55,444 bases of DNA from Candidatus Omnitrophota bacterium (GTDB lineage Bacteria > Omnitrophota > Gorgyraeia > Velamenicoccales > Velamenicoccaceae), in assembly GCA_043801485.1 (NCBI GenBank), contig JAZDLY010000168.1, forward strand, positions 1 through 55,444. Direction: 5' to 3'. The notes under the pieces are model-generated. The model was not told the DNA's origin, did no database searches, and saw nothing but the letters and a program-made list of their open reading frames with translations. Of this stretch, positions 10,261 through 45,050 are shown one piece after another. A program made the translations under genes and the position numbers. Each line of letters opens with the position of its first letter. Positions within the stretch are counted from its first letter, which is position 1.

Positions 10261-11063
10261 AACCCCTGAAGCGCTTTGGCCAAAATTTTTTGGTCGACGC
10301 AAATGTCGTCCGCAAAATCATTGCGGCCTGCGATATCTCCAGGACAGACTATGTTCTGGAAATCGGTTCCGGCAACGGTGCCTTGACGCTTCCCCTGGCC
10401 CAAAGGGCCAAAAGAGTTGTGGCAGTGGAGATTGACCGCGGCAGAAGTTTGGCCTTGCGACAGAAGATGCTGGGTTTTACGAATACAAAGATCATCTGTC
10501 AGGACATCCTGAAATTTGATTTGAAAAAACACATCTCCAGGGCGCGCAGCAAGCGGTTGAAGGTCATTGGCAACTTGCCGTATTATCTGACAACGCCCAT
10601 TCTGGAATATTTGCTCAGGCATTTGTCTGCCATCGACGATATTTATATCATGCTTCAGAAAGAAGTGGCCCAGCGCCTGACTGCTGACCGCGGCAGCAAG
10701 GCCTACAGTTCTTTAACCTGTTTTGTCAATTATTTTTGCCATCCTGAGATTCTTTTTAAAATCAAGAGCGGTTCTTTTTTCCCGAAGCCTAAGGTCGAGT
10801 CTTGTTTTGTGCATTTGAAGCCGCGGGACAAAGACGAATACGGGTTGCGTGTTCGTTCGCAAGAGCTCTTGTTCAAGGTGATCCGTCATGCGTTTGGCCA
10901 GCGGAGAAAAACCCTCCTGGGGTCTTTGTCTAGGGCCTGGCCCCGGCAGGAGCTCCTGCGTCTGCCGCAAAGAGCGCTTCTGGAGCGCAGGCCTGAGGAG
11001 CTGAGTCTCGACGATTTTGTGCACTTGAGCAACCATGTTTTTGACTTTTCAAGGGAGCGATGA
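10245..11063 (+). CDS. rsmA: 16S rRNA (adenine1518/1519-N6)-dimethyltransferase
   Basis: FGQNFLVD, VLEIGSGNGALT, GNLPYY motifs. pdxA-rsmA synteny. Confidence 0.93.
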   Translation: MSENLKPLKRFGQNFLVDANVVRKIIAACDISRTDYVLEIGSGNGALTLPLAQRAKRVVAVEIDRGRSLALRQKMLGFTNTKIICQDILKFDLKKHISRARSKRLKVIGNLPYYLTTPILEYLLRHLSAIDDIYIMLQKEVAQRLTADRGSKAYSSLTCFVNYFCHPEILFKIKSGSFFPKPKVESCFVHLKPRDKDEYGLRVRSQELLFKVIRHAFGQRRKTLLGSLSRAWPRQELLRLPQRALLERRPEELSLDDFVHLSNHVFDFSRER

Positions 11064-18705: not shown

Positions 18706-19373
18706 CCCGTCCGTCATACGTCGACCTGGGTTTTGCCTGCGTTGACACCGACAGGCAAAAACGAAGGGGCTTTCCTGAAGTCATCTTCTGCCAGAATAAG
18801 ACCAAGCAAGAGATTGCCCGCATTTCCCTCGAACTAAAGAAACACAATGCTTCTTGTCTGCTTTTGACCCGATTGGATCCGCGTTTTTATCCGGCCCTAA
18901 AGAAAAAAATTCCTGGATTGAAGTGGCATCCCCGTGCCCGCCTGGCGTATGTTCCGGCAAGGGCTGGCGCGCGACGGATCGGCGGTGTGTTGATTGTGAC
19001 CGCGGGCACGAGCGACATCCCCGTTGCCGAAGAAGCCCGGGTGACGCTTGAGCTTATGGGAATTTCTGCTCAGACGCTCTACGACGTCGGCGTTGCCGGC
19101 GTGCACCGCGTTTTGGACAAAAAGGACGTTTTGCGGAAAGCCAAGGTAATCATTGTTGTGGCCGGCATGGAGGGCGCTTTGGCAAGCTTGGTGAGCGGTT
19201 TGGTGTCCAGTCCCGTGATTGCCGTGCCAACGAGTTGCGGTTACGGGTCGCATTTTGAGGGCCTGGCCGCACTTTTGACGATGCTCAACAGTTGTTCCCC
19301 GGGCATCGCGACAGTCAATATCGACAACGGCTTCGGTGCCGGATATTTAGCAGGGTTGATTTTAAAAATATGA
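18702..19373 (+). CDS. larB: LarB, nickel-pincer cofactor biosynthesis carboxylase/hydrolase (PurE-like)
   Basis: PurE-like core VTAGTSDIPVAEEA and VVAGMEGALASLV..PVIAVPTS.GYG. Adjacent to larC. Confidence 0.88.
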   Translation: MTRPSYVDLGFACVDTDRQKRRGFPEVIFCQNKTKQEIARISLELKKHNASCLLLTRLDPRFYPALKKKIPGLKWHPRARLAYVPARAGARRIGGVLIVTAGTSDIPVAEEARVTLELMGISAQTLYDVGVAGVHRVLDKKDVLRKAKVIIVVAGMEGALASLVSGLVSSPVIAVPTSCGYGSHFEGLAALLTMLNSCSPGIATVNIDNGFGAGYLAGLILKI

Positions 19374-20503
19374 AAGATCTGTATTTTGATTTAATCGGCG
19401 GAATCAGCGGGGATATGACGGTGGCCGCTTTGCTGGATTTCGGCGTGAATCTCGAATTTTTAAAAAAAGAATTAAAGAAGATCAAGGTGAACGGCTACGC
19501 GCTCAAGACCACCAAAGTCTCCCGCGGCCATGTCCAGGCCAGGAAATTCGATGTGATTGTCCGGCAACCGAAGAACTATTCTTACCGTCAGATCCAGCGC
19601 TTGATCAGGATGAGTTCGCTTTCTGCGGACGTTCAAAAAAATATTCTGAATATTTACCGGGTTTTGGCAGATGCAGAGTTAAAGGTTCACGGTCACCGGT
19701 ATGGCGGTCTGCGCTTTGAACAATTGGGGGATCTGGATTCGCTGGTCGATATTGCCTCGGTCTGTATTTGCCTCAAGCGCCTGGGCGTTGGGGGTCTTTA
19801 TCATTCGGTGATTCCGTTGAACAAAAACATTGCGCCGGCAACTTCCGAACTTCTTTTAGGGAAACGAGTTTATTATACCCAGGCGATTTTTGAAAATGTA
19901 ACGCCGACAGGCATGGCCATTTTGTTTGCCCTTGCCCGGCCGTTGGAAAACGATCGTCAGCATATTTTTGCCTATGGCCGCGCGGGCTACGGGGCGGGTG
20001 CCGTGGATTCACCGGAGGCCTCCAATGTCTTGCGTCTGGTTGAAATAAAACAGGAATGGCCCGGAGCCGAAACGGATTTCGTCGAGGTCCTGGAAGCCAA
20101 TATCGATGACATGAATCCCCAATTTTTTGATTATCTTTTTGAGAAGTTGTTCGCCGCGGGGGCCTTGGATGTATTTGTCCAGCCCGTGTTGATGAAGAAG
20201 ACCCGACCGGGTTTTTTGTTAACAGTATTGTCAAACGGCCCAAATTTAGGTATGATAACAGATCTTGTTTTGCAAGAAACATCCACCTTAGGCATTCGTT
20301 TTTATCCCGCGCAAAGACTGAAATTGTCCCGAAGCATCAAAACGATTGTCTGGAAGGGGCATAAGGTCAGGGTGAAAATCGCAAGACTCCCGCAGGGCGG
20401 TGTCCGGATGGTGCCGGAGTATGAAGACTGCAAGGCCCTGGCAAAAAAAATCAACAGACCATTGGTTGATATCTATCAAACCATTCAACAGAGGGCAGGG
20501 TAA
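19370..20503 (+). CDS. larC: LarC, nickel insertion (pyridinium-3,5-bisthiocarboxylate mononucleotide nickel chelatase, DUF111)
   Basis: MKDLYFDLIGGISGDM N-terminus typical of DUF111. ATGA overlap with the larB stop. Confidence 0.9.
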   Translation: MKDLYFDLIGGISGDMTVAALLDFGVNLEFLKKELKKIKVNGYALKTTKVSRGHVQARKFDVIVRQPKNYSYRQIQRLIRMSSLSADVQKNILNIYRVLADAELKVHGHRYGGLRFEQLGDLDSLVDIASVCICLKRLGVGGLYHSVIPLNKNIAPATSELLLGKRVYYTQAIFENVTPTGMAILFALARPLENDRQHIFAYGRAGYGAGAVDSPEASNVLRLVEIKQEWPGAETDFVEVLEANIDDMNPQFFDYLFEKLFAAGALDVFVQPVLMKKTRPGFLLTVLSNGPNLGMITDLVLQETSTLGIRFYPAQRLKLSRSIKTIVWKGHKVRVKIARLPQGGVRMVPEYEDCKALAKKINRPLVDIYQTIQQRAG

Positions 20504-20505
20504 TT

Positions 20506-21843
20506 ATGGCGCTTTCAGGATTAGACATCTATAAACTTCTGGCCAAAACCAATTGCAAAAAATGCGGTTTTCAGACCTGCCTGGCATTCGCGATGCAGTT
20601 GGCCAAGAAGGCCGTCAGCCTGGAGAAGTGTCCCTTTGTGACGCCGGACGTGCGCGCTGTCTTGGAAGAAGCAGCTCAGCCGGCAATCCGGCTTGTTGAG
20701 ATTGGCTTGGCAGACAACAAGGTCTGTGTCGGCCACGAAACCGTTCTTTTTCGGCACGAGGAAAAATTCTATCATCCGACCGCCATCGGTTTACTCGTTG
20801 AAGGCGACACGGACGAGGCAGGACTGAAAAAAATTCTTGAAGAAATAAACAGCCTTAGCTTTGAGCGCGTGGGCCAGGTCCTGAATGTTAATCTGATTGC
20901 TTTAAGAGAAAAATCGGGCAAAGCAGAACAATTCATCAAGTGTTTAGATCAATTGACGAAAAACTCTTCGCTGGGATTGGTCTTGATGTGCGCCAACGCG
21001 ACGACCCTAAAGAGAGCCCTGCAAGCTTGTGCCCAGAACAAACCGTTGGTCTATTGCGCCGTGTCTGAGCAGATCCTGGAGTTTGCCGCCGCCTGCAAGG
21101 AATATCGCCTGCCGCTGGCCATCCGGGGTCATGGGACGGATGATTTTTCAAGATGTTCCAAGCAAATTGTTGGAGCCGGTGTCCCAGACATCGTGCTCGA
21201 CATCGGGGCAGCCGGCGCTACGGAGTGCGTTTGGCAATTGACGCAGATCCGGCGCCTGGCCATCAAAAAAGCCGAGCGCAGTCTTGGATATCCCACGATG
21301 GTTGTGATCCAGGAGGCTGACCAAGCCAAGATGGTTGTCCAAGCCGCGCTGTGTCTGGCAAAATATGCCAGCATCATTTTATTGAAATCCAGAAGGCCTG
21401 AGCAGATCTTGCCCCTGTTGACGTTGCGGCAGAATATCTTCACCGACCCGCAAAAACCTTTGCAGGTGGAGCCGAATATTTATCCGATCGGCGCGGTCCA
21501 GGAAGATTCGCCGGTTCTTGTGACTACGAATTTTTCCCTGACATATTATACGGTCCTGGGGGAAATAGAATCCAGCCGCGTGCCGAGTTATTTGTTGGTC
21601 GTTGATACCGAAGGAATGTCGGTTTTGACGGCATGGGCTGCGGAAAAATTTACCCCGGAGAAGATCACCGACACCCTGGCCAAATTCAAGCTCTCTGAAC
21701 TGGTCCGACACAAAAATCTGGTCATCCCGGGCTATGTGTCGGTCATGAGCGGTGAATTGGAAGAAAAATCCGGTTGGAAAATCCATGTGGGGCCTCGCGA
21801 AGCAGCGAGCATCCCGTCGTTTTTAAAAAATTTGTCTTCCTGA
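20506..21843 (+). CDS. acsC: Corrinoid iron-sulfur protein large subunit (AcsC/CdhE)
   Basis: N-terminal 4Fe-4S motif CKKCGFQTCLAFAMQLA..C, TIM-barrel middle part and C-terminal B12-binding Rossmann part. Context with acsD/acsE. Confidence 0.9.
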   Translation: MALSGLDIYKLLAKTNCKKCGFQTCLAFAMQLAKKAVSLEKCPFVTPDVRAVLEEAAQPAIRLVEIGLADNKVCVGHETVLFRHEEKFYHPTAIGLLVEGDTDEAGLKKILEEINSLSFERVGQVLNVNLIALREKSGKAEQFIKCLDQLTKNSSLGLVLMCANATTLKRALQACAQNKPLVYCAVSEQILEFAAACKEYRLPLAIRGHGTDDFSRCSKQIVGAGVPDIVLDIGAAGATECVWQLTQIRRLAIKKAERSLGYPTMVVIQEADQAKMVVQAALCLAKYASIILLKSRRPEQILPLLTLRQNIFTDPQKPLQVEPNIYPIGAVQEDSPVLVTTNFSLTYYTVLGEIESSRVPSYLLVVDTEGMSVLTAWAAEKFTPEKITDTLAKFKLSELVRHKNLVIPGYVSVMSGELEEKSGWKIHVGPREAASIPSFLKNLSS

Positions 21844-21844
21844 A

Positions 21845-23782
21845 ATGGAAAAGTGCATCGTTACGTTCTCGCCGGATCAAAAGAAGGTTATTGTGGACCG
21901 CGGCACGACCATTCTGGCTGCGGCCCTTTCGGCCCATATCCATCTTGATGCGGGTTGCGGCGGCGACGGCGTGTGCGGGAAGTGCAAGGTGATTGTTCGT
22001 CAGGGGACGGTCCGCGCAGAGTCTTCCGGTAATATTGCACCTGGCGAGCGAAAAGAGGGAGTGCATTTGGCCTGTCAGACGTTAGTTGAGTCTGATTTGG
22101 ACGTGGAGATCCTTGCGGAATCCCGTTTGGATTTGAGTATGCTGAGCAAAGAAGAATTGGAGCTGCGTCTGCGCGGGGTCTACAGCAAGGCTGAAGATGT
22201 CGTTGAGACAAAGGCGGGTCTTGGCGAGGGCCTGTTTGAATACGAGCCGTTGGTGACTAAAGTTTACCTGGAGCTTTCAAAGCCAGATTTTAGCGATAAA
22301 CTCAGTGACCTGGAACGGATTTACCGTGCCATTGAAGATAAGATCGGCGCCAGACCCATCCACACCGGGCTTGCAAATATCCGTCAGCTCGGCTCCTTAT
22401 TGCGGTCCTGTGACTGGAAGGTGACGGTTGCGCTTGCTCAGAAGGCCGATGTGGTGGAGCTCGTGGCTGTCGAGCCAGGGGATCGATCCGGCAGGAATTA
22501 CGGTCTGGCTTTTGACATCGGGACCACAACGGTGACCGGTCAGATTGTTGACCTGAAAGCAAAAAAAGTTTTGGGCACCAAGGCGGCCTACAACCGTCAG
22601 GCTACTTTTGGTTCAGACGTCATCACGCGCATTATCTATGCGCAGGCCCAGGATGGTCTTGAAAAACTGCATCATGCGGTGGTGGACATGGCCAACGAAA
22701 TGATCGAGTCCTTCATTGACGAGCAGGATATTGATTTGAATGACGTCCTGTCTCTGTGCGTGGCGGGAAATACGACGATGCTGCATTTGTTGTGCCGTAT
22801 TGACCCGACGCATATCCGTCAGGAGCCGTATGTGCCGACGGCCAATTTTATTCCGCTCGTTAAAGCCGCGGAGGTTGGTATCGGCATCAATCCGCACGGC
22901 GTTCTGTTTTGTTTGCCAGGAGTGTCGAGCTATGTGGGTGCGGACATCACGGCCGGTGTCATGGCCTGCGACATCCATCGGTCCAAAAAAACAACGATTT
23001 TGATCGATATCGGCACCAACGGCGAGATTGTTCTTGGGAATTCCGAGTGGATGATCAGTTGTGCGGCCTCAGCCGGACCTGCCTTTGAAGGCAGCGGCAT
23101 GTCCTGTGGCTTGCGGGCTGTGCGCGGCGCCATCCAGGCAGTGAAAATCAAAGACATAACGCTTGAGCTTGACGTGACGACGATCGGAGAGGCCGCGCCG
23201 CGTGGCATCTGTGGCTCGGGTTATATTGATCTTGTCGCAGAGCTTTTGACGTTGGGGGCCCTGGATAAGAACGGCAAGCTCAATCAGGCCATTAATAACA
23301 GGCGTCTGCGCCAAGGCAAATTCGGATACGAGTTTGTTGTTGTGTTTGGCGAAGAAGCCGGCATCGGCGAAGATATTGTTGTCAGTGATATGGATCTCGA
23401 TAATTTAAAACGAGCCAAGGCCGCCATTTATTCCGGGATATCGGTCCTGACCAGACACCTGGATATGAGTTTTGAAAACGTTGACAGGTTTTATGTCGCC
23501 GGAGGTTTTGGGACGTCTTTGAATATTGAGAGCGCAGTGCGGATTGGTTTGATTCCTGACCTACCAAGGGAGAAGTTTATCTTCGTGGGCAACAGCTCTT
23601 TGGCAGGGGCCCGCCAGAGCCTTTTATCCTGTCAGGCAGGCCGCGTGGCCGAACAAATTGCCGCGAATATCACGTATTTCGAATTATCCGCGGATGCGCG
23701 ATATATGGATGAATACATGGCCGCATTGTTTTTTCCGCACACGGACAAAGCTCGTTTTCCGAGCGTGAAGTATAGCCATTGA
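21845..23782 (+). CDS. acsV: Corrinoid activation/regeneration protein (RACo-type: 2Fe-2S ferredoxin + ASKHA ATPase)
   Basis: N-terminal plant-type ferredoxin cysteines (CGGDGVCGKCKV...C), a DUF4445/ASKHA body (DIGTTTV, DIGTNGE). Positioned between acsC and acsD as in acetogens. Confidence 0.85.
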   Translation: MEKCIVTFSPDQKKVIVDRGTTILAAALSAHIHLDAGCGGDGVCGKCKVIVRQGTVRAESSGNIAPGERKEGVHLACQTLVESDLDVEILAESRLDLSMLSKEELELRLRGVYSKAEDVVETKAGLGEGLFEYEPLVTKVYLELSKPDFSDKLSDLERIYRAIEDKIGARPIHTGLANIRQLGSLLRSCDWKVTVALAQKADVVELVAVEPGDRSGRNYGLAFDIGTTTVTGQIVDLKAKKVLGTKAAYNRQATFGSDVITRIIYAQAQDGLEKLHHAVVDMANEMIESFIDEQDIDLNDVLSLCVAGNTTMLHLLCRIDPTHIRQEPYVPTANFIPLVKAAEVGIGINPHGVLFCLPGVSSYVGADITAGVMACDIHRSKKTTILIDIGTNGEIVLGNSEWMISCAASAGPAFEGSGMSCGLRAVRGAIQAVKIKDITLELDVTTIGEAAPRGICGSGYIDLVAELLTLGALDKNGKLNQAINNRRLRQGKFGYEFVVVFGEEAGIGEDIVVSDMDLDNLKRAKAAIYSGISVLTRHLDMSFENVDRFYVAGGFGTSLNIESAVRIGLIPDLPREKFIFVGNSSLAGARQSLLSCQAGRVAEQIAANITYFELSADARYMDEYMAALFFPHTDKARFPSVKYSH

Positions 23783-23787
23783 CATTG

Positions 23788-24540
23788 ATGAGTGACGTGA
23801 TTGTAGTCGGCGGAAAAGGCGGAACGGGCAAGACGACGATTTCAGCGGCGATCACTCTTTTTTTAGCCAGGCGAAAGGCCGGTGTTTTGGCGGTTGATGC
23901 TGATCCCAACAGCAATCTGGCAGACGCCCTTGGGGTGAAGGTCCGGGAAACAATCGCCGATATCATCGATGAAGTTTCAAAAAACCCGGATGCGGTGCCC
24001 AAAAGCATGGGCAAAGACAGTTTTGTTGAAATGAAAATTCATCAGAGCATTTCGGAGAACGACGGATTTGATCTTTTGGTCATGGGCAGACCCGAAGGGC
24101 CGGGCTGCTATTGTTACATCAACAATGTGCTTAGGAATGTCATGGCCAAGCTCTCCGGCGACTATCCGTATGTGGTCATTGACAATGAAGCAGGGATGGA
24201 GCATTTTTCAAGAAAAACAACGCGCGCCTGCGATGAATTGATTTTGGTTTCGGATGAAACCGAGGTGGGCCTGAAATCGGCGGGGCGGATTTTAGGTCTG
24301 ATCGATGAATTGAATATTCCTGCCAAAAGGAAATTTTTATTGGTCAACAAGAAAACCGGGCCCAAAGACACCAAGGTCTTGAAAAGGCAATTTTCCGTCG
24401 AGCGTATTTTTGAACTTCCTTTTGATGACGCATTGCCCCGTTTGAGTGCCGAGGGGGCGTCAGTGGCTGCCTTAGAAATAAAATCAACGTTTTATGATGC
24501 TGTCGAACAGTTTGGAGAATTGATATGGCCGAAGAATTAA
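23788..24540 (+). CDS. cooC: CooC/AcsF-type Ni-insertion ATPase
   Basis: Deviant Walker A GGKGGTGKTT, CYC motif (GPGCYCY), MinD/ParA fold. ATG at 23788 is preferred over TTG at 23779. Confidence 0.85.
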   Translation: MSDVIVVGGKGGTGKTTISAAITLFLARRKAGVLAVDADPNSNLADALGVKVRETIADIIDEVSKNPDAVPKSMGKDSFVEMKIHQSISENDGFDLLVMGRPEGPGCYCYINNVLRNVMAKLSGDYPYVVIDNEAGMEHFSRKTTRACDELILVSDETEVGLKSAGRILGLIDELNIPAKRKFLLVNKKTGPKDTKVLKRQFSVERIFELPFDDALPRLSAEGASVAALEIKSTFYDAVEQFGELIWPKN

Positions 24541-25493
24541 AACTGCTTGAAAAATGGTGTTTAAAAATTTGCGAGTTAAAACTCGGTGCCCTTGCCGCTG
24601 AGGGAGGCAGTCGGGGACAGGTTTTGACCCTGGGTGGTGAGAGCACGTTGCCGTTTTTATTCAAAGAAGGCCAGATCCCCCATGCACCCGTGATCGCCGC
24701 AGAGATTATTGACGGGGCTGATGAAGACGTGCCTGAGTCTCTGCAAAAAGATTTAGGCAAGTTGTTGAAAAATCCCGTGGATTGGGCAAATCATATGGTG
24801 ACCGAGGCCGGCGCGGATCTGGTGTGTTTAAAATTGCAGGGCATCCATCCGGATTTTGGCAACAAGTCTGCCCGGGACGCCAAGGACTTGGCGCTCGCTG
24901 TTTTAAAAAAGATCAAAACTCCGCTTGTTGTTCTGGGCTGTGGCCAGGCGGATAAAGACAGCGAGGTTCTGCCCTTGATTTCCGAGGCGACAAAAGGGGA
25001 ACGGTTTTTATTCGGCGACGCGGTCCAGGAAAACTACAAGACCCTGACCGCCGCCTGCATCGCCGACGGGCACAGCATCATTGCCGAATCGCCGATTGAT
25101 GTCAACATTGCCAAACAGTTGAATATTTTGATTTCTGATTTAGGGATGCCTTTGGAGAGGATTGCCATCAATCCGACCATTGGGGCCCTCGGATACGGCT
25201 TGGAATACGCTTATTCTATTATGGAACGTGCCCGGAATGCCGCCTTGTCCGGCGATAAAATGCTGGCCATGCCGTTTGTTTGTTTTGTCGGCCAGGAAGT
25301 ATGGCGCGCCAAAGAAGCCAAAGTCTCAGAGACAGAATTTCCGCAAGGGGGGAATGCCCGAGAGCGCGGTATTATGTGGGAAGTTGTGACCGCGATGGCA
25401 ATGCTGGCTGCCGGCGCAGATTTGTTGACCATGCGGCACCCGGAGGCGATTCGCATTGTTAAGAATGCCATTGCAGATTTAATGAAAAAATGA
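24525..25493 (+). CDS. acsD: Corrinoid iron-sulfur protein small subunit (AcsD/CdhD)
   Basis: 322 aa TIM-barrel protein, with family resemblance and acs context. Confidence 0.85.
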   Translation: MAEELKLLEKWCLKICELKLGALAAEGGSRGQVLTLGGESTLPFLFKEGQIPHAPVIAAEIIDGADEDVPESLQKDLGKLLKNPVDWANHMVTEAGADLVCLKLQGIHPDFGNKSARDAKDLALAVLKKIKTPLVVLGCGQADKDSEVLPLISEATKGERFLFGDAVQENYKTLTAACIADGHSIIAESPIDVNIAKQLNILISDLGMPLERIAINPTIGALGYGLEYAYSIMERARNAALSGDKMLAMPFVCFVGQEVWRAKEAKVSETEFPQGGNARERGIMWEVVTAMAMLAAGADLLTMRHPEAIRIVKNAIADLMKK

Positions 25494-25566
25494 TTTATCC
25501 ACCTTCGCTGGAAAACTTTTCTCCAGCTACGGTGGACTTCACTAATTATTTACATTAAGGTGTTTC

Positions 25567-26367
25567 GTGTATATCATCGGCGAATTGATCAACGGGATGT
25601 ATCAGAAGGTCGCCAAGGCCATAGGCGAACGCGACACGACATTCATCAAATCTCTGGCAAGCCTTCAGGTAGAGGCAGGCGCCGATGCCCTTGATGTGAA
25701 CTGCGGACCGGCCTCTCACAATCCCAAAGAAGACATGCTTTGGCTGGTGGAAACAATCCAGGCCCAGGTAAAAGCGACCCTGTGTCTGGATAGCACAAAG
25801 CCGGCGGTGATCGAAGAGGGGCTCAAGGCTGCCAAAAACAAAACCATCATCAATTCGTCTTCTGCGGATCCTGAGCGTCTGGAAATTTATATCCCGATGG
25901 CCAAGAAATACGGTTCCAGCCTGATTGCGCTGACCATGGATAAAAAAGGCGTGCCGCAGGACAAAGACCGCAGGTTGGAATTGGCAGCGCAGATTTTAGC
26001 CTATGCCGAAGAAAACGATTTTTCCGTGCAGGACCTTTATTTGGATCCTATAGTTCTGCCGGTGAATGTCGCCCAGAAGCAGCTTTTTGATATTCTGGAA
26101 GTGATCCGCGATTTTAAATTGTTGTCTGTCCCGGCGCCCAAGGCCGTGGTGGGGCTGAGCAATGTGTCGCAAGGGTCCAAAGACAGAAGCCTTATCAACA
26201 GGACTTTTTTGGTCATGGCTCAAGGCCATGGCCTGGATGCAGCTATTTTGGATCCCTTGGATGAGACCCTGATGAGCGAGTTGATCACCGCGGACCTGGT
26301 TATGAACAAAAATATTTATTGCGATTCCTATATCGACGCGTACAAGAAGAGCAAGGTCAGTCGATAG
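25567..26367 (+). CDS. acsE: Methyltetrahydrofolate:corrinoid/iron-sulfur protein methyltransferase
   Basis: Pterin-binding fold with IIGELING, ALDVN, GLSNVSQG. GTG start with an AAGGTG SD. Confidence 0.9.
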   Translation: MYIIGELINGMYQKVAKAIGERDTTFIKSLASLQVEAGADALDVNCGPASHNPKEDMLWLVETIQAQVKATLCLDSTKPAVIEEGLKAAKNKTIINSSSADPERLEIYIPMAKKYGSSLIALTMDKKGVPQDKDRRLELAAQILAYAEENDFSVQDLYLDPIVLPVNVAQKQLFDILEVIRDFKLLSVPAPKAVVGLSNVSQGSKDRSLINRTFLVMAQGHGLDAAILDPLDETLMSELITADLVMNKNIYCDSYIDAYKKSKVSR

Positions 26368-26394
26368 TCTATAGTCAATAGTCGATAGATAGAT
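26359..26394 (+). repeat. Tandem heptamer AGTCNAT x4 plus AGAT x2, spanning the acsE stop
   Basis: agtcgat agtctat agtcaat agtcgat agat agat. TAG triplets at 26365, 26372, 26379, 26386 and 26390 fall in all three frames. Confidence 0.85.
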
Positions 26395-26397
26395 TTT

Positions 26398-26474
26398 GGC
26401 GGAGTAGCTCAGCCTGATAGAGCACGCGGCTCATACCCGCTTTGTCGGTGGTTTAAATCCACTCTCCGCCACCA
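26398..26474 (+). tRNA. tRNA with CAT anticodon (elongator Met, or Ile2 if lysidinylated), CCA encoded
   Basis: Hand-folded cloverleaf: GGCGGAG/CTCCGCC acceptor, GCTC/GAGC D stem, CTCATAC anticodon loop, GGTGG-TTTAAAT-CCACT T arm, ACCA end. G1-C72 is paired, so it is not an initiator. Confidence 0.92.
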
Positions 26475-26629
26475 GTACTTTGCGCTCTGTGTCATAACTC
26501 TGTTTATGGATTGTGCTTGGTTGGTGTCCTTGCTCGCTTGCGCTCGCAGGGACTTCGCTAAATGCACCTTCGGTGCTCATTAAGGTGCTTGGTTTTCAGC
26601 CGGAGGCTGATCCGCCTTCGGCGGAAAAT
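26475..26629. repeat. Hairpin-module mosaic in reverse orientation (C' then A')
   Basis: TCCTTGCTCGCTTGCGCTCGCAGGGA and TTCGCTAAATGCACC-TTCG-GTGCTCATTAAGGTGCTTG are reverse complements of modules C and A seen elsewhere. Followed by TCCGCC-TTCG-GCGGA. Confidence 0.7.
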
Positions 26630-26645
26630 CCACTCTCCGCCACCA
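26630..26645 (+). repeat. Echo 1 of the tRNA(CAT) 3' end (CCACTCTCCGCCACCA)
   Basis: 16/16 identical to 26459-26474. With the preceding AAAT, 20 nt are identical. Confidence 0.9.
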
Positions 26646-26694
26646 TCTCTTAGAAGTCAGTGGCGTGCTATCAGGGCAGCCCTCCGAAGGAGGG

Positions 26695-26710
26695 CCACTC
26701 TCCGCCACCA
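26695..26710 (+). repeat. Echo 2 of the tRNA(CAT) 3' end
   Basis: 16/16 identical. Preceded by the CCCTCC-GAA-GGAGGG hairpin. Confidence 0.9.
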
Positions 26711-26805
26711 TTCTTCTCCGCCGTGCTGCTTTCGCGCACGGCTACGAAGCAATAGGCGAACAAGGTGCTACGAAGCCAAAGACGCAAGTGCTTTGGCGAA
26801 GTAGA

Positions 26806-26821
26806 CCACTCTCCGCCACCA
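26806..26821 (+). repeat. Echo 3 of the tRNA(CAT) 3' end
   Basis: 16/16 identical. Preceded by the GCCAAAG-ACGCAAGT-GCTTTGGC hairpin and followed 20 nt later by the ferredoxin start. Confidence 0.9.
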
Positions 26822-26841
26822 ATATTTTAAAAGGAGGAACA

Positions 26842-27048
26842 ATGCCGAAGAAAAAACTTCCTAAGGTTGTCGAAGAGTTTTGCATCGGGTGCGGTCACTG
26901 CGTCATGGCCTGCCCCTTGGGTGTGCTCAAAGTCGTCAATAAAAAAGCCAAAGTCGTGAATCCCGCAGCCTGCGACAGCGAAGGGCGTTGCATTGCCGCC
27001 TGTCCCCAGAAAGCCATCCCACACCTCCAAGAGCAAGAATACGCGTAG
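26842..27048 (+). CDS. Small 2x[4Fe-4S] ferredoxin
   Basis: 68 aa with CIGCGHCVMACP and C..EGRCIAACP. Strong SD AAAGGAGGA 5 nt upstream. The longer ORF 26665.. runs through repeats and is rejected. Confidence 0.85.
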   Translation: MPKKKLPKVVEEFCIGCGHCVMACPLGVLKVVNKKAKVVNPAACDSEGRCIAACPQKAIPHLQEQEYA

Positions 27049-27091
27049 GGTTGCAGGGGAGCTGCAGCGGTGGATTTTTTTTCACAATCCA

Positions 27092-28020: not shown

Positions 28021-29010
28021 ATGTCGATCGCCCCACGCATCCTCAAGACAGTCGAGCGCTACAAATTATTCTCTCCCGGCGAAAAAGTCATTGTGGCGGT
28101 TTCCGGCGGTCCGGATTCCGTGGCTTTGTTTCATCTTCTCAGGGAATTAAACCCACGGCTGTGCCTGAAGTTGGCTGTGGCCCATCTTGATCATGGCCTC
28201 AGGCGTTCTTCTAAAAACGACTTGATGTTTGTCAGGAAAATGGCAGGGCGCCACGGTGTGTCGTTCTATGGCCGTCGGCTGGAGCAGGCCAAAATCAAGA
28301 CGAAGGGGTCTTTGGAAGATGTTTTGAGAAAATTGCGTTATGATTTTTTGTTGAAGCTGGCTATAAAAATCGGGGCCAGCAAAATTGTTGTCGGGCACAC
28401 GCTTGATGACCAGGCCGAGACGGTTTTGATGAGGGTTTTGCGGGGCAGCGGCCTGGTGGGGCTGGCCGCCATTTTGCCGAAGCGGCGTTTGGCCGTGGGG
28501 TGCCAGGTGGTTCGGCCTTTGATCGAAGTCAACCGCAAGCAGATTCTCCATTACCTTGGCAAACACAGCATACCTTTTTGTACGGACGAGTCGAATCTCC
28601 AAACAAATTTTTTCAGGAACAAGATTCGTCTTCAGCTTTTGCCCTATCTCCAACGCGCTTATAATCCAAATGTGAAGGAGGTTTTGGCGCGCCTGGCGCT
28701 TTCGGTGGGTGCGGATTATGAATTCTTGTTGTCGTGCGGTGGTGATTTTTTAAAGTCCCATGTCCGGCCAACCCGCAACGGCTACCGGTGTAGCCGCACG
28801 GCCCTGGGGAAATTGGATGTTGCGTTGCAGCGGATTGTGCTGAGGCTCATGATCGAAAAATTGCATGGCGATTTAAAGAGGATTGAATTCTGCCATTGGT
28901 TGGAAATAGAGGATTTGTTGGGAGCCAGGCCCGAAGGGGCCCAGGTCCATTTGCCTTTTGATATAACTCTTTCAAAGACCAAAGGTTACTTAAATATTTT
29001 TAAAAGATAA
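28021..29010 (+). CDS. tilS: tRNA(Ile)-lysidine synthase
   Basis: PP-loop VAVSGGPDS, HLDHGLR. tilS-ftsH synteny. Confidence 0.93.
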   Translation: MSIAPRILKTVERYKLFSPGEKVIVAVSGGPDSVALFHLLRELNPRLCLKLAVAHLDHGLRRSSKNDLMFVRKMAGRHGVSFYGRRLEQAKIKTKGSLEDVLRKLRYDFLLKLAIKIGASKIVVGHTLDDQAETVLMRVLRGSGLVGLAAILPKRRLAVGCQVVRPLIEVNRKQILHYLGKHSIPFCTDESNLQTNFFRNKIRLQLLPYLQRAYNPNVKEVLARLALSVGADYEFLLSCGGDFLKSHVRPTRNGYRCSRTALGKLDVALQRIVLRLMIEKLHGDLKRIEFCHWLEIEDLLGARPEGAQVHLPFDITLSKTKGYLNIFKR

Positions 29011-35417: not shown

Positions 35418-35551
35418 TGATTTGATTGCGGAGCGAAGCTCCAAAATCGCCCCCAAGGGGTGACAGCGGAGACTTTGCGACGAGTAGAAGTAAAGTCGTA
35501 GCGCAAGAGGGGCGTAAGCCCCTATTGATCGGGGGTTTGGGGGCGATTTTC
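35418..35551 (+). other. Structured inter-tRNA spacer closed by a 13-bp long-range stem
   Basis: AAAATCGCCCCCA (35436-35448) pairs with TGGGGGCGATTTT (35538-35550). Inside are GGAGC-GAA-GCTCC and AGGGGC-GTAA-GCCCCT hairpins. Confidence 0.55.
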
Positions 35552-35634
35552 GGACGGGTACCCAAGTGGCCAAAGGGGGCAGACTGTAAATCTGCTGCAC
35601 ACAAGCTTCAGAGGTTCAAATCCTCTCCCGTCCA
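35552..35634 (+). tRNA. tRNA-Tyr (GTA), long variable arm
   Basis: GGACGGG/CCCGTCC acceptor, GCAGA-CTGTAAA-TCTGC anticodon arm, AGAGG-TTCAAAT-CCTCT T arm, 83 nt without CCA. Confidence 0.88.
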
Positions 35635-35668
35635 CTTAAATTTTTCCGACAAGGAAAAATTTAAGTGG
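35632..35668 (+). other. 16-bp perfect hairpin that incorporates the last 3 nt of tRNA-Tyr
   Basis: CCACTTAAATTTTTCC-GACAA-GGAAAAATTTAAGTGG. No U-tract follows. Confidence 0.7.
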
Positions 35669-35875
35669 TGCCGCAGCGAGCGTTAAGCGGCACGACAAGC
35701 GACCGGAGGAAGTCCCTTTGGGATGCCGTAGCGAGATGCGGCCCACCACCTTAATGTTTGCGGGAGTAGTTTTAATGACGGCACAAGTTATGGAACTGTT
35801 TGGTGACATAACTTGTTGCCGGAATTAATCCCGCCGGTTTCCAGGCGGGACAGTGGTCGTCGAGATGTTAGATTT
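35669..35875. repeat. Hairpin-module spacer between tRNA-Tyr and tRNA-Gly, including a tRNA-Gly 5' echo at 35757-35771
   Basis: GCCGC-AGCGAGCGTTAA-GCGGC, GCCG-TAGCGAGAT-GCGGC, CACCTTAATG word, CGGCACAAGTTATG-GAACTGTTTGGTGA-CATAACTTGTTGCCG, TCCCGCC-GGTTTCCAG-GCGGGA. TTTGCGGGAGTAGTT duplicates 35873-35887. Confidence 0.75.
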
Positions 35876-35949
35876 GCGGGAGTAGTTCAGTGGTAGAACA
35901 CTAGCCTTCCAAGCTGGTTATGTGGGTTCGATTCCCATCTCCCGCTCCA
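35876..35949 (+). tRNA. tRNA-Gly (TCC), CCA encoded
   Basis: GCGGGAG/CTCCCGC acceptor, CCTTCCAAG anticodon region, GTGGG-TTCGATT-CCCAT T arm, TCCA end. Confidence 0.92.
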
Positions 35950-36069
35950 AAGAATGCAGCGTGTTTGAATTTTGAGCTCGGTTTGTTAATAGTGGGGTCT
36001 GGGTTCGTCCCGCCAAAAAACGGCGGGATTTCCCTTGATGCACCTTCGGTGCAGATTATGGTGCTCAAA

Positions 36070-36085
36070 TTCCCATCTCCCGCTT
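36070..36085 (+). repeat. Echo of the tRNA-Gly 3' end (ATTCCCATCTCCCGCT)
   Basis: 16/16 identical to 35931-35946. Preceded by the module-A-like TGCACC-TTCG-GTGCA. Confidence 0.85.
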
Positions 36086-44647: not shown

Positions 44648-44721
44648 CGGGGAGTGGCTCAGCTTGGTAGAGCACCTGAATGGGGTTCAGGGGGTCAGCG
44701 GTTCAAGTCCGCTCTCCCCGA
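44648..44721 (+). tRNA. tRNA-Pro (GGG)
   Basis: CGGGGAG/CTCCCCG acceptor, CCTGA-ATGGGGT-TCAGG anticodon arm, AGCGG-TTCAAGT-CCGCT T arm. Confidence 0.9.
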
Positions 44722-44775
44722 CTTTATTGAGCACGTGACTTACGGAACGAAGTGAACGTAAGTCACTGTGCGAAA
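44720..44775 (+). repeat. 56-nt perfect direct repeat, copy 1 (begins in the last 2 nt of tRNA-Pro; contains module E)
   Basis: GACTTTATTGAGCACGTGACTTACGGAACGAAGTGAACGTAAGTCACTGTGCGAAA, identical to 44880-44935. Confidence 0.92.
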
Positions 44776-44879
44776 TAAATCCTCGATATCTACCTCAATG
44801 AATTATCCGAGGTAAATATCGAGGATCAACTCGAACGAATAACTTAGCTGCTCGTTGTTTGCTAAGTTATGTTCTCGTT
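44776..44879. repeat. Module F and an E-like hairpin between the direct repeats
   Basis: ATCCTCGATATCTACCTC-loop-GAGGTAAATATCGAGGAT (44779-44826) and ATAACTTAGC-TGCTCGTTGTTT-GCTAAGTTAT. Confidence 0.8.
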
Positions 44880-44935
44880 GACTTTATTGAGCACGTGACT
44901 TACGGAACGAAGTGAACGTAAGTCACTGTGCGAAA
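44880..44935 (+). repeat. 56-nt perfect direct repeat, copy 2
   Basis: Identical to 44720-44775, with a 160-bp period. Confidence 0.92.
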
Positions 44936-45025
44936 CAAGCACCTTAATTTGTACCAAAGGTGCATTTAGCGAAGTCCTCGACATTTACTTCTATGTTATT
45001 TTGAGGTAAATGTCGAGGATAACTC
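44936..45025. repeat. Modules A and F before doxX
   Basis: CAAGCACCTTAATTTGTACC-AA-AGGTGCATTTAGCGAA, then TCCTCGACATTTACTTC-loop-GAGGTAAATGTCGAGGA (44975-45020). Confidence 0.8.
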
Positions 45026-45050
45026 GAAAAGAATGACATTGGAGGCTTTT

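Follow-up and report, generated by a model that had tools for sequence, protein, structure and literature searches.

Behind a tRNA gene of an Omnitrophota genome we find an array of three different structured modules, each closed by an exact copy (an 'echo') of the tRNA's own CCA-terminated 3′ end. The array lies in a 55,444-nucleotide (nt) stretch of DNA from a Candidatus Omnitrophota bacterium (GenBank assembly GCA_043801485.1, contig JAZDLY010000168.1; hereafter 'the window'), directly downstream of tRNA(CAT), and had been picked out in a preliminary description of the sequence. Comparison with related loci identifies the three units as members of a repertoire of trailer modules—here called types A to E—that stands behind Candidatus Omnitrophota tRNA genes. 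The reading we favour, and to which we give roughly even chances, is that these are conserved, structured modules in which the echo is base-paired within the fold, that they duplicate and recombine to build arrays, and that they act as stops for RNA processing, by analogy with the rtT RNA of Escherichia coli. The components of the array, all on the + strand, are as follows.

26398–26474, +: tRNA(CAT) with its CCA encoded (ARAGORN and Rfam)
26475–26645, +: unit 1, 171 nt, composite type B (comparison and folding)
26564–26576 (GCACCTTCGGTGC), 26596–26610 and 26611–26625 (TCCGCC-TTCG-GCGGA), +: hairpins of unit 1
26646–26710, +: unit 2, 65 nt, type A (alignment with 8 homologues, RNAalifold)
26676–26679 (GCAG), 26680–26694 (hairpin CCCTCC-GAA-GGAGGG) and 26695–26710 (echo 2), +: parts of unit 2
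26711–26821, +: unit 3, 111 nt, type E (homologues and folding)
26723–26741 and 26775–26797 (GCCAAAG-N8-(G)CTTTGGC), +: hairpins of unit 3

Reading downstream from the tRNA, its last 16 nt (26459–26474; CCACTCTCCGCCACCA) recur in the same orientation at 26630–26645, 26695–26710 and 26806–26821, as the preliminary description had it; each echo has 0 mismatches and includes the CCA. Echo 1 is longer than the other two, 20 nt being common to it and the tRNA (AAATCC..., 26626–26645), such that it reaches into the T loop, with echoes 2 and 3 at 16 nt; this, too, had been recognised, as had the distinct GC-rich hairpin that precedes each echo (located at 26611–26625, 26680–26694 and 26775–26797) and the end of the array 20 nt before the start codon of a ferredoxin gene (fdx; ATG at 26842). 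Only 0.03 copies of the 16-mer are expected by chance, four copies being reached in 0/100 shuffles, and allowing as many as 2 mismatches revealed no extra copy anywhere in the 55 kb. The spacers between echoes measure 49–151 nt, giving a repeat spacing of 65–171 nt, and units 1, 2 and 3 have no mutual similarity outside the echo.

Folding each unit computationally, a check put forward in the preliminary description, gives predicted structures that are in every case more stable than shuffled controls. In unit 1 (z = −3.9 for the last 66 nt; z = −3.2 for 150 nt) the segment GGCGGA (26620–26625) is predicted to pair with UCCGCC of echo 1, leaving ACCA unpaired; the acceptor-like minihelix with an ACCA tail that had been proposed for this echo can therefore form, and unit 3 holds a similar partner. 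In unit 2 (z = −2.1) GUGGCG (26660–26665) is predicted to pair with CGCCAC of echo 2 so that only CA stays free, and in the alignment with 8 homologues, which takes in both tRNA lineages, the RNAalifold consensus reveals compensatory changes in the hairpin. Unit 3 (z = −4.7) begins with TTCTTCTCCGCC (26711–26722), complementary to its own GGCGAAGTAGA (26795–26805); GGCGAAG (26795–26801) serves as the predicted partner of echo 3 (GGCG...:...CGCC), again with ACCA unpaired. The units retain at most an acceptor/T helix resembling the top half of a tRNA: no tRNA was called between 26475 and 26841 by ARAGORN or by the Rfam tRNA model at E ≤ 10, and the array has no Rfam match besides the tRNA itself, even at E ≤ 10. 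An 80-amino-acid (aa) open reading frame (ORF) with an ATG start (26562–26804) spans units 1–3; it is strongly Arg-rich, lacks an obvious Shine-Dalgarno sequence and a Pfam match, and is probably a by-product of the GC hairpins.

Relatives of the locus were sampled as 8 genome loci, found through AcsE, the methyltransferase encoded upstream of the tRNA, and 120 metagenome loci, found through a tRNA T-arm/3′ pattern (numbered here with the prefix L). The closest genomes are Candidatus Omnitrophota metagenome-assembled genomes, with AcsE identity up to 75%. The order AcsE–tRNA(CAT)–gap–tilS–ftsH is kept in ~70 loci with the gap running from 36 nt to 10 kb, and for that reason we infer that the tRNA(CAT) trailer, the tRNA-to-tilS gap that holds the array, is a hypervariable hotspot. 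Echoes were counted in the 117 loci with a trailer of at least 200 nt, allowing at most 2 mismatches in 14 nt, up to 700 nt downstream and on the tRNA strand. They are present in 33 of these 117 (one echo in 23, two in 8 and three in 2), so that the orthologous spacer, which the preliminary description had suggested comparing, carries one to three own-tRNA echoes in these relatives; an exact-match search of both strands of each locus found no echo copies on the opposite strand. At each locus the echo corresponds to the end of the resident tRNA: CCAGTCGCCGCCAC, CCAGCCGCCGCCAC or CCACTCTCCGCCAC by lineage, the tRNA lineages being those with CTCTCC, GTCGCC and GCCGCC. These comparisons also bear on the concern, raised at the outset, that the array is an assembly artefact, i.e. 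a mis-joined or collapsed repeat in a metagenome contig. Contigs do end inside a repeat in L004 and L017; against this, each of the three spacers in the window is unique and unlike the other two, arrays homologous to this one were assembled independently in dozens of cases and from different samples, and the flanks are colinear with those of relatives, and because of the differing spacers and the independently assembled arrays we consider an artefact very unlikely, its probability being close to negligible.

The units at these loci fall into recurrent forms.

Type A: CAGCTATTTACGAAGT-N-AGTGGCG...GGCAG-hairpin-echo; unit 2 of the window, L008, L023, L047, L053, L068, L075 and L100
Type B: resembles the 5′ strand of the T stem and the first part of the T loop, interrupted by an insert (T-CCCGC..GCGGG-ATTTCGC...GGTGCTCAA), after which the T loop is completed and the 3′ end follows; unit 1 of the window (composite), L015, L017, L035, L050, L055, L062, L081, L086 and L094
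Types C and D: R1-GCAG-hairpin-CCA-R1′-GCCAC(CA)
Type E: start TTCTNCT(C/T)CGCC, complementary to its own 3′ GGCGAAGNAGAA; unit 3 of the window, L086 (two copies), L105 and L114

The module families, including the unpaired motif CAGCTATTTACGAAGT, are common to lineages whose AcsE proteins are ~60–67% identical. Nor are they confined to tRNA(CAT): in L060 a type E module stands behind each of tRNA-Gly, tRNA-Thr and tRNA-CAT, abutting the CCA in every case, with the terminal echo absent behind tRNA-Gly and tRNA-Thr; L021 has a 30-nt echo behind tRNA-Thr, and L044 a palindrome and echo behind tRNA-Gly. We had considered whether GGCGAAGTAG of unit 3 is a copy of the tRNA(CAT) 5′ end, which would make the unit an internally deleted tRNA; this was rejected because the same segment is intrinsic to the type E modules behind tRNA-Gly and tRNA-Thr in L060. 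The tRNA cluster of L060 also holds a group I intron (517–718, − strand; Rfam, 96.9 bits), apparently splitting the anticodon loop of tRNA-Tyr.

The window itself contains further examples, in keeping with the suggestion that other tRNAs might have echoes: tRNA-Gly and tRNA-Pro here, in addition to tRNA-Thr of L021.

35876–35949, +: tRNA-Gly
35950–36084, +: type B module 3′ of tRNA-Gly, ending in the tRNA-Gly 3′ end ATTCCCATCTCCCGCT (36069–36084) with no CCA
44648–44722, +: tRNA-Pro, with a repeat region at 44713–44938

The tRNA-Gly unit is paralogous to the inner part of unit 1, the hairpin GCACCTTCGGTGC being identical in both, and its predicted fold consists of a 7-bp acceptor-like stem (AGUGGGG:UCCCGCU) and a T-like stem (UGGG:CCCA). 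At tRNA-Pro, the last 10 nt of the tRNA and 56 nt of trailer have a second copy 160 nt downstream (44873–44938; 94% identity), in which the echo part has decayed (TCTCCCCGAC versus TCTCGTTGAC). Motifs of the modules cluster 3′ of tRNAs: the GCAG-hairpin-CCA module occurs once in the 55 kb, its other matches being at chance level (7 versus 3.35 in shuffles) and, judging from their positions, inside coding sequence; a dispersed palindrome of the repetitive extragenic palindrome/bacterial interspersed mosaic element (REP/BIME) type was rejected on this account.

Several other structured or repeated sequences accompany the tRNA genes of this genome, the spacers of which are generally highly structured. 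The first 12 nt of tRNA-Gly together with a TTT flank (TTTGCGGGAGTAGTT) are also found at 35757–35771, 116 nt upstream, and comparable upstream copies of tRNA 5′ ends exist in L012, L049 and L067 (tRNA-CAT) and L044 (tRNA-Thr). A further repeat family lies near tRNA-Pro (44809–44843 and 45003–45037). The tRNA-Tyr trailer (35632–35669) forms a 16-bp hairpin, CCACTTAAATTTTTCC-gacaa-GGAAAAATTTAAGTGG, that takes in the last 4 nt of the tRNA; a homologous hairpin sits inside a ~90-nt unit present as 4 repeats between tRNA-Tyr and tRNA-Gly in L021 (10660–11000). The tRNA-Thr/tRNA-Tyr spacer (35418–35551) is bounded by a 12-nt inverted repeat (AAAATCGCCCCC ... GGGGGCGATTTT) and is rich in GC hairpins with tetraloop-like loops.

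The pairing between partner segment and echo follows the tRNA from lineage to lineage. In types C and D, R1 (5–7 nt) is the reverse complement of the junction of T-stem 3′ and acceptor 3′ strands within the echo, and changes with the tRNA (GAGAG/CTCTC, G(G)CGAC/GTCGC(C) and GCGGC/GCCGC); a tRNA-Gly unit of unrelated sequence has an equivalent layout (CGAAGG/CCTTCG). In a fixed-length alignment of 17 phylogenetically related units, curated and trimmed by us, 85% of cells are paired, versus 74% in shuffles (0/500 reach the observed value) and 33–56% in slid registers; the covariation score is 0.36 versus 0.19 (0/500 shuffles), with double changes at three R1 pairs and three hairpin pairs. A lineage-swap test agrees: of 120 non-redundant trailers, 12 have a complement to the tRNA end of their own lineage at an offset of 7–12 nt, versus ~0.4% for foreign complements. 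R1 also occurs in trailers that have no echo, where it complements the 3′ strand of the tRNA itself at a spacing of 15–16 nt.

The modules are conserved as well as paired, as two pairs of closely related genomes show. Between L054 and L078, module and echo differ at 1 of 54 positions (in a loop) versus 140 of 691 in the adjacent AcsE coding sequence (p = 2e-4), and the downstream DNA at 48 of 302; between L015 and L050, the type B core and echo differ at 0 of 80 versus 12 of 97 in the immediate 5′ spacer (p = 6e-4). Unit 3 and its L105 homologue are 84.5% identical over 84 nt, the corresponding AcsE genes 70.6% at the DNA level. From these comparisons the modules would appear to be about as constrained as the tRNA, or else to have been recently exchanged.

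Signatures of duplication are equally apparent. Identical tandem units exist in L081 (2 × 84 nt), L004 and L072 (49 nt) and L035, and L086 has type E twice, with its inner echo shortened to CCA. In L054, L020, L063, L053 and L062 a unit-like restart follows the last echo, which we take to be the signature of a duplicated segment comprising the tRNA 3′ end and the first part of the trailer; at the end of the L054 array a complete GGCAG...CTGCC hairpin is followed by a T-rich tail, resembling a terminator. The flanks of L099 and L121 are almost the same as those of L068, yet both of these loci carry a complete hairpin (AAGAGGCA...TGCCTCTT in L099) and no echo, such that L068 and L099 form a filled/empty pair. 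The encoded-CCA status of tRNA and echo can differ (L009, L056, L078 and L094), and hybrid or foreign echoes exist in L098, L100 and L056. A perfect 20-nt palindrome (CCTGCCTGCCGGCAGGCAGG) is found both inside the L105 echo, at the T loop/T stem junction, and before the tRNA-Gly echo of L044; L086, otherwise homologous to L105, does not have it, and it may be a tiny mobile palindromic element.

Such dynamics might also be produced by neutral events: the echoes would then be junctions left by slippage or unequal crossing-over, a functionless minisatellite seeded by the tRNA 3′ end and kept homogeneous by gene conversion, and the hairpins ordinary trailer or terminator structures of tRNA genes. 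Palindromes flanked by direct repeats are classic substrates for slippage; copy number varies from 0 to 3 among relatives, and the identical tandems and the restart past the last echo are what such a process would leave behind. In echo-less relatives the 'GCAG-hairpin' is the 5′ part of a complete trailer hairpin, as illustrated by the hairpins of L099 and L054, the echo at tRNA-Pro is decaying and the helices show no strand asymmetry (see below). This account has more difficulty with modules conserved like a tRNA while adjacent coding or spacer DNA has diverged by 12–20%, with families common to distant lineages, with compensatory changes in R1 in at least four sequence contexts, and with the heterogeneity of the window array, which cannot stem from one duplicated unit. 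On balance we regard it as unlikely.

Saying this, a number of observations weigh against structured, duplicating modules that stop RNA processing. The pairing register varies with module type, leaving an unpaired tail of ACCA, CA or GCCACCA, so that no single tRNA-processing enzyme is obviously served. The two strands behave alike (fold z −3.1 and −2.8; G.U counts 105 and 103; A.C mismatches similar), and the helices therefore fit a DNA palindrome equally well; in types C and D, U.G is enriched at one hairpin position (7 of 17), probably a reflection of shared ancestry. The shared phylogeny of the 17 aligned sequences weakens the covariation as support, and module conservation could in part reflect recent recombination instead of selection. 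Tandem duplication of the simple kind does not suffice to explain an array as heterogeneous as that of the window, and recombination between different trailers has to be invoked. Lastly, ~72% of related loci are without echoes, which are hence dispensable.

Known integration at tRNA genes provides another point of reference, and the same tRNA is indeed occupied by islands in some relatives. These measure 0.7–6 kb and have boundary repeats of 21–47 nt. In L042 a 301-aa tyrosine recombinase directly follows the tRNA, within a 6-kb segment with a boundary repeat of 47 nt; L096 and L098 hold smaller islands of a like kind, with repeats of 46 and 42 nt. In these three clearest cases the repeat has its start in the anticodon loop, and blocks of 21–27 nt bound the remaining islands. 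An integrase homologue stands beside the tRNA in only 3 of ~124 loci (L042, L076 and L106), and a tblastn search of the 55-kb window with a single query, the L042 integrase, gave no match. Judged by sequence, the integrase islands form a class separate from the echo modules, because their repeats are longer and their spacing is on the kb scale, in contrast to echoes of 16–20 nt that stand 65–171 nt apart; the preliminary description was thus correct to set the array apart from the usual integrase scars. As to island content, read from the sequences alone, the 6-kb L042 island encodes the tyrosine recombinase, a Fic-like protein and a helix-turn-helix protein; among the islands of the tRNA-to-tilS gap (L042, L077, L045, L096 and L098) one has an OLD-like ATPase and three, of 1.1–1.6 kb with 1–3 small ORFs, have no integrase.

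The modules could nevertheless be DNA elements in their own right: non-autonomous mini-cassettes, placed behind the tRNA by a tyrosine recombinase that targets tRNAs or by a recombinase specific for single strands, with insertion at the 3′ end. The folded R1/unpaired spacer/hairpin/R1′ would play the part of an integron attC site, and the tRNA end that of attI. Insertions are frequent in the tRNA-to-tilS gap, a hotspot with a tyrosine recombinase by the tRNA in L042, L076 and L106, and integrase-less inserts with 1–3 ORFs lie between tRNA fragments in L045, L096 and L098. The swaps between CCA and non-CCA flanks and the hybrid or foreign echoes listed above, the same module types behind different tRNAs of one genome, the 20-nt palindrome at the echoes of two tRNAs, the strand-symmetric helices and a formal parallel to attC as it is generally described would all accord with insertion. 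On the other side, units of 48–170 bp are too small for double-stranded circular intermediates, the search with the L042 query found no recombinase in the 55-kb window, and the real islands use different, longer repeats. Most units are free of cargo, the type E modules behind tRNA-Gly and tRNA-Thr in L060 have no terminal echo, and viral contigs yielded no attP-like copy: their 9 matches to the 16-mer are all without adjoining T-loop or tRNA context. Taken together, mini-cassettes seem to us a doubtful explanation, and rather an unlikely one.

The genes around the array, all of which are on the + strand in this region, are relevant to a regulatory explanation.

26842–27048, +: fdx, 4Fe-4S ferredoxin, 68 aa (Pfam Fer4 families)
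27050–27068: predicted terminator-like hairpin 3′ of fdx
28021–29010, +: tilS, tRNA-Ile lysidine synthetase (Pfam ATP_bind_3 (PP-loop) and TilS domains)

Downstream of the array the order is fdx, a PilZ protein, a 160-aa protein, tilS, ftsH, folP and cdaA; upstream of tRNA(CAT) lies an acetyl-CoA synthase/Wood-Ljungdahl cluster, the last gene of which, for the methyltransferase AcsE, ends at 26367. G1-C72 and the lack of a GGG/CCC anticodon stem mark the tRNA as an elongator type; it is probably the TilS substrate tRNA-Ile2, an assignment we base on the conserved gene order at ~70 loci. It is against this background that the echo hairpins might be seen as a cis-regulatory leader or decoy, binding TilS, an aminoacyl-tRNA synthetase, the CCA-adding enzyme or EF-Tu, and thereby regulating the genes from fdx to tilS or titrating the bound factor. 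The array does stand in the 5′ region of a transcription unit leading to tilS, whose product recognises this tRNA, the echoes copy the acceptor stem exactly, and acceptor-like helices ending in an ACCA tail are possible for units 1 and 3. Yet the same modules occur at tRNA-Gly, tRNA-Thr and tRNA-Pro with unrelated genes downstream, the downstream gene itself varies, most relatives have no echoes and the pairing register is not uniform; accordingly we attach only a small probability to a leader or decoy.

Some features of the locus deserve mention in their own right. The acetyl-CoA synthase/corrinoid-protein cluster (19292–26367) looks complete, comprising a Ni-insertion protein, AcsC/D-like CdhD proteins, RACo, a CooC-like ATPase and AcsE, and its linkage to the tRNA is kept in many relatives. 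An exact-protein look-up of the ferredoxin found no record. In tRNA(CAT) the T loop is TTTAAAT and the D loop AGCCTGATA, with A19/U56 (our own numbering) in place of the usual G19/C56; L002 has the T loop TTCAAAT together with AGCCTGGTA, so that positions 19 and 56 would co-vary. The pattern GGTTTAAATCCA marks this tRNA(CAT) family in >120 metagenome contigs. Directly 5′ of the tRNA, at 26359–26386, stands a tandem pair of 14-nt copies (AGTCGATAGTCTAT / AGTCAATAGTCGAT), and a near-identical motif, TAGTCGATAGTCTATA, lies 5′ of tRNA-Tyr in L021 (~10490–10510); it may be a promoter-region motif of tRNA genes.

How might structured trailer modules work as processing stops? Comparison supports a first step in which a segment comprising the tRNA 3′ end and trailer would duplicate and recombine to yield arrays, while the echoes stay identical in sequence to the end of the resident tRNA. 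One transcript would span the tRNA, the array and the gene that follows; neither a sigma-70-like promoter nor an intrinsic terminator was predicted between tRNA(CAT) and fdx. Within that transcript each module would fold on itself, the partner segment holding the echo in a helix with its ...CCA end single-stranded, and 3′ processing or trimming would halt at the tRNA-like 3′ end so formed. The outcome would be discrete CCA-ending RNAs, with the tRNA parted from the mRNA behind it, on the pattern of the tyrT operon of E. coli, whose annotated rtT RNA ends at the echo CCA. Internal pairing may serve an additional purpose, preventing the echoes from displacing the genuine 3′ strand on the tRNA 5′ acceptor strand: when the transcript is folded as a whole, the acceptor 5′ strand is predicted to pair with echo 1 and not with its own 3′ strand (−180.1 versus −178.3 kcal/mol), from which it follows that such competition is thermodynamically possible.

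A bolder view, which we think improbable but not fanciful, is that the modules are undescribed, phylum-wide mimics of tRNA 3′ halves that move from one tRNA locus to another, take on the terminal sequence of the tRNA they join and give rise to functional CCA-ending small RNAs, or else that they are attC-like sites of a recombination system for which tRNA 3′ ends serve as the docking site. Were this the case, the mimic small RNAs might control tRNA maturation or quality, or be minihelices that can be aminoacylated or bound by TilS. Our literature searches found no description of short tRNA-end arrays or of Omnitrophota tRNA repeats.

It remains to place the array amongst known systems, beginning with the attachment-site (att) scars left by tycheposons, integrative and conjugative elements and prophages. 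In these, as in the window, a direct repeat of the tRNA 3′ part lies 3′ of an intact tRNA, and successive events can give rise to several repeats. However, att scars have repeats of ~40–47 nt and kb-scale inserts, with published tRNA-fragment repeats of ~40–44 nt and inserts of 9–23 kb (PMC9897764; bioRxiv 10.1101/2020.12.28.424599), whereas the repeats of the window are 16–20 nt long with no integrase or cargo between them, the Arg-rich 80-aa frame, which has no family match, being the only ORF. The intervening DNA of the window consists of conserved structured modules, unlike the decayed island DNA of att scars.

Integron attC sites are folded, imperfect palindromes made up of an outer helix, an unpaired spacer and an inner helix, with R/L boxes, strand-specific extrahelical bases and the core GTTRRRY. 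Types C and D can be laid out similarly, as attC is commonly drawn: R1:R1′ as outer helix, unpaired GCA / CA, an inner helix and a loop of 3 to ~50 nt. Both kinds of array are punctuated by a short conserved core, which here is the tRNA 3′ end and not GTTRRRY. No asymmetry between strands was seen in the fold and base-pair comparisons of the modules, most units are without an ORF and unit 2 of the window has no R1; nor, with the one integrase query used, was an IntI-type integrase found by the array, the flanks of which are AcsE, fdx, the PilZ protein, the 160-aa protein, tilS and ftsH.

Signals that mimic tRNAs to direct processing are familiar from mitochondrial tRNA punctuation, the mascRNA of MALAT1 and RNase P cleavage in bacterial polycistronic mRNAs; lying within a longer transcript, they attract the enzymes that process tRNA ends and in this way set the ends of RNAs. 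The likeness here is the acceptor/T-arm mimic: units 1 and 3 and the tRNA-Gly unit have predicted acceptor-like folds with the correct tail. Unlike those signals, the units have no conserved cloverleaf or complete top half, and their register varies. The suggestion that the units are minihelices or processing punctuation hence survives in part; it is plausible in view of the acceptor-like folds of units 1 and 3 and of the annotated E. coli RNA that ends at an echo CCA (below), but the differing register argues against one uniform minihelix of the RNase P type. Better supported than the other suggestions made at that stage is a repeat element that copies tRNA termini, given recurrent families, several tRNAs and tandem duplication.

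The closest parallel is the tyrT/rtT locus of E. coli. In E. coli K-12 (NC_000913.3) a 178-bp unit stands behind tyrV in 3.1 copies, with 95% identity between copies and one more copy between tyrT and tyrV; each unit ends in AATCCTTCCCCCACCACCA, the last 19 nt of tRNA-Tyr, of which there are four copies. The annotated small RNA RttR (171 nt) starts 7 nt past the CCA of tyrV and ends exactly at the CCA of the first echo. Within the unit, GGGGAAGGAT is the reverse complement of the first part of the echo; folding predicts that the helix between them, GGGGAAGGAU:AUCCUUCCCC, closes the structure with the CCA tail free. Three papers (PMC3318445, PMC2965389 and PMC8250186) describe rtT as an RNA processed from a single repeat unit, arising as a by-product when tyrT is processed and possibly involved in the stringent response; its structure is backed by covariation, and its function is still treated as uncertain.

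The two systems are alike in that the units lie directly 3′ of the tRNA on the same strand, have a GC-rich, hairpin-rich interior and end in the exact tRNA 3′ end, from the T loop through to the CCA (19 nt in E. coli, 16–20 nt in the window). In E. coli a segment inside the unit is predicted to hold the 5′ part of the echo, closing the fold and leaving the CCA tail free, a role played by R1:R1′ in the relatives and by a partner for each echo in the window. Even the Arg-rich ORF that runs through the repeats has its counterpart, the 'protamine-like' tpr in E. coli and 26562–26804 here. Differences lie in the units themselves: those of E. coli are near-identical copies, whereas those of the window are unrelated save for the echo, although homogeneous tandems do occur in L081, L004, L072 and L086. 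The Rfam RtT model (RF00391) has no match in the window, at gathering threshold or at E ≤ 10, nor in 18 related loci, whereas E. coli units score 133–138 bits. Because of this, and because the window units are not copies of each other, the Omnitrophota units are on sequence grounds best described as analogues of RtT and not as members of the family.

More than 30 years after they came to light, the tyrT repeats and rtT RNA are the only comparable case that we found and verified; seeing a design of this kind in a distant, uncultured phylum supplies the comparative dataset that the E. coli case lacked, and suggests either a general means of punctuating transcripts that join tRNA and mRNA or a general mode of recombination at tRNA 3′ ends. 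For annotators, the lesson is that a short repeat of a tRNA end need not mark the boundary of an island, and that metagenome assemblies break at arrays of this sort. Set beside tyrT, the Omnitrophota system comprises several module families behind several tRNAs (Ile2/CAT, Gly, Pro and Thr) in many genomes, with covariation between echo and partner. What is new is therefore a modular, lineage-wide form of the tyrT/rtT-type trailer repeat that co-varies with its tRNA, rather than a design that is categorically new.

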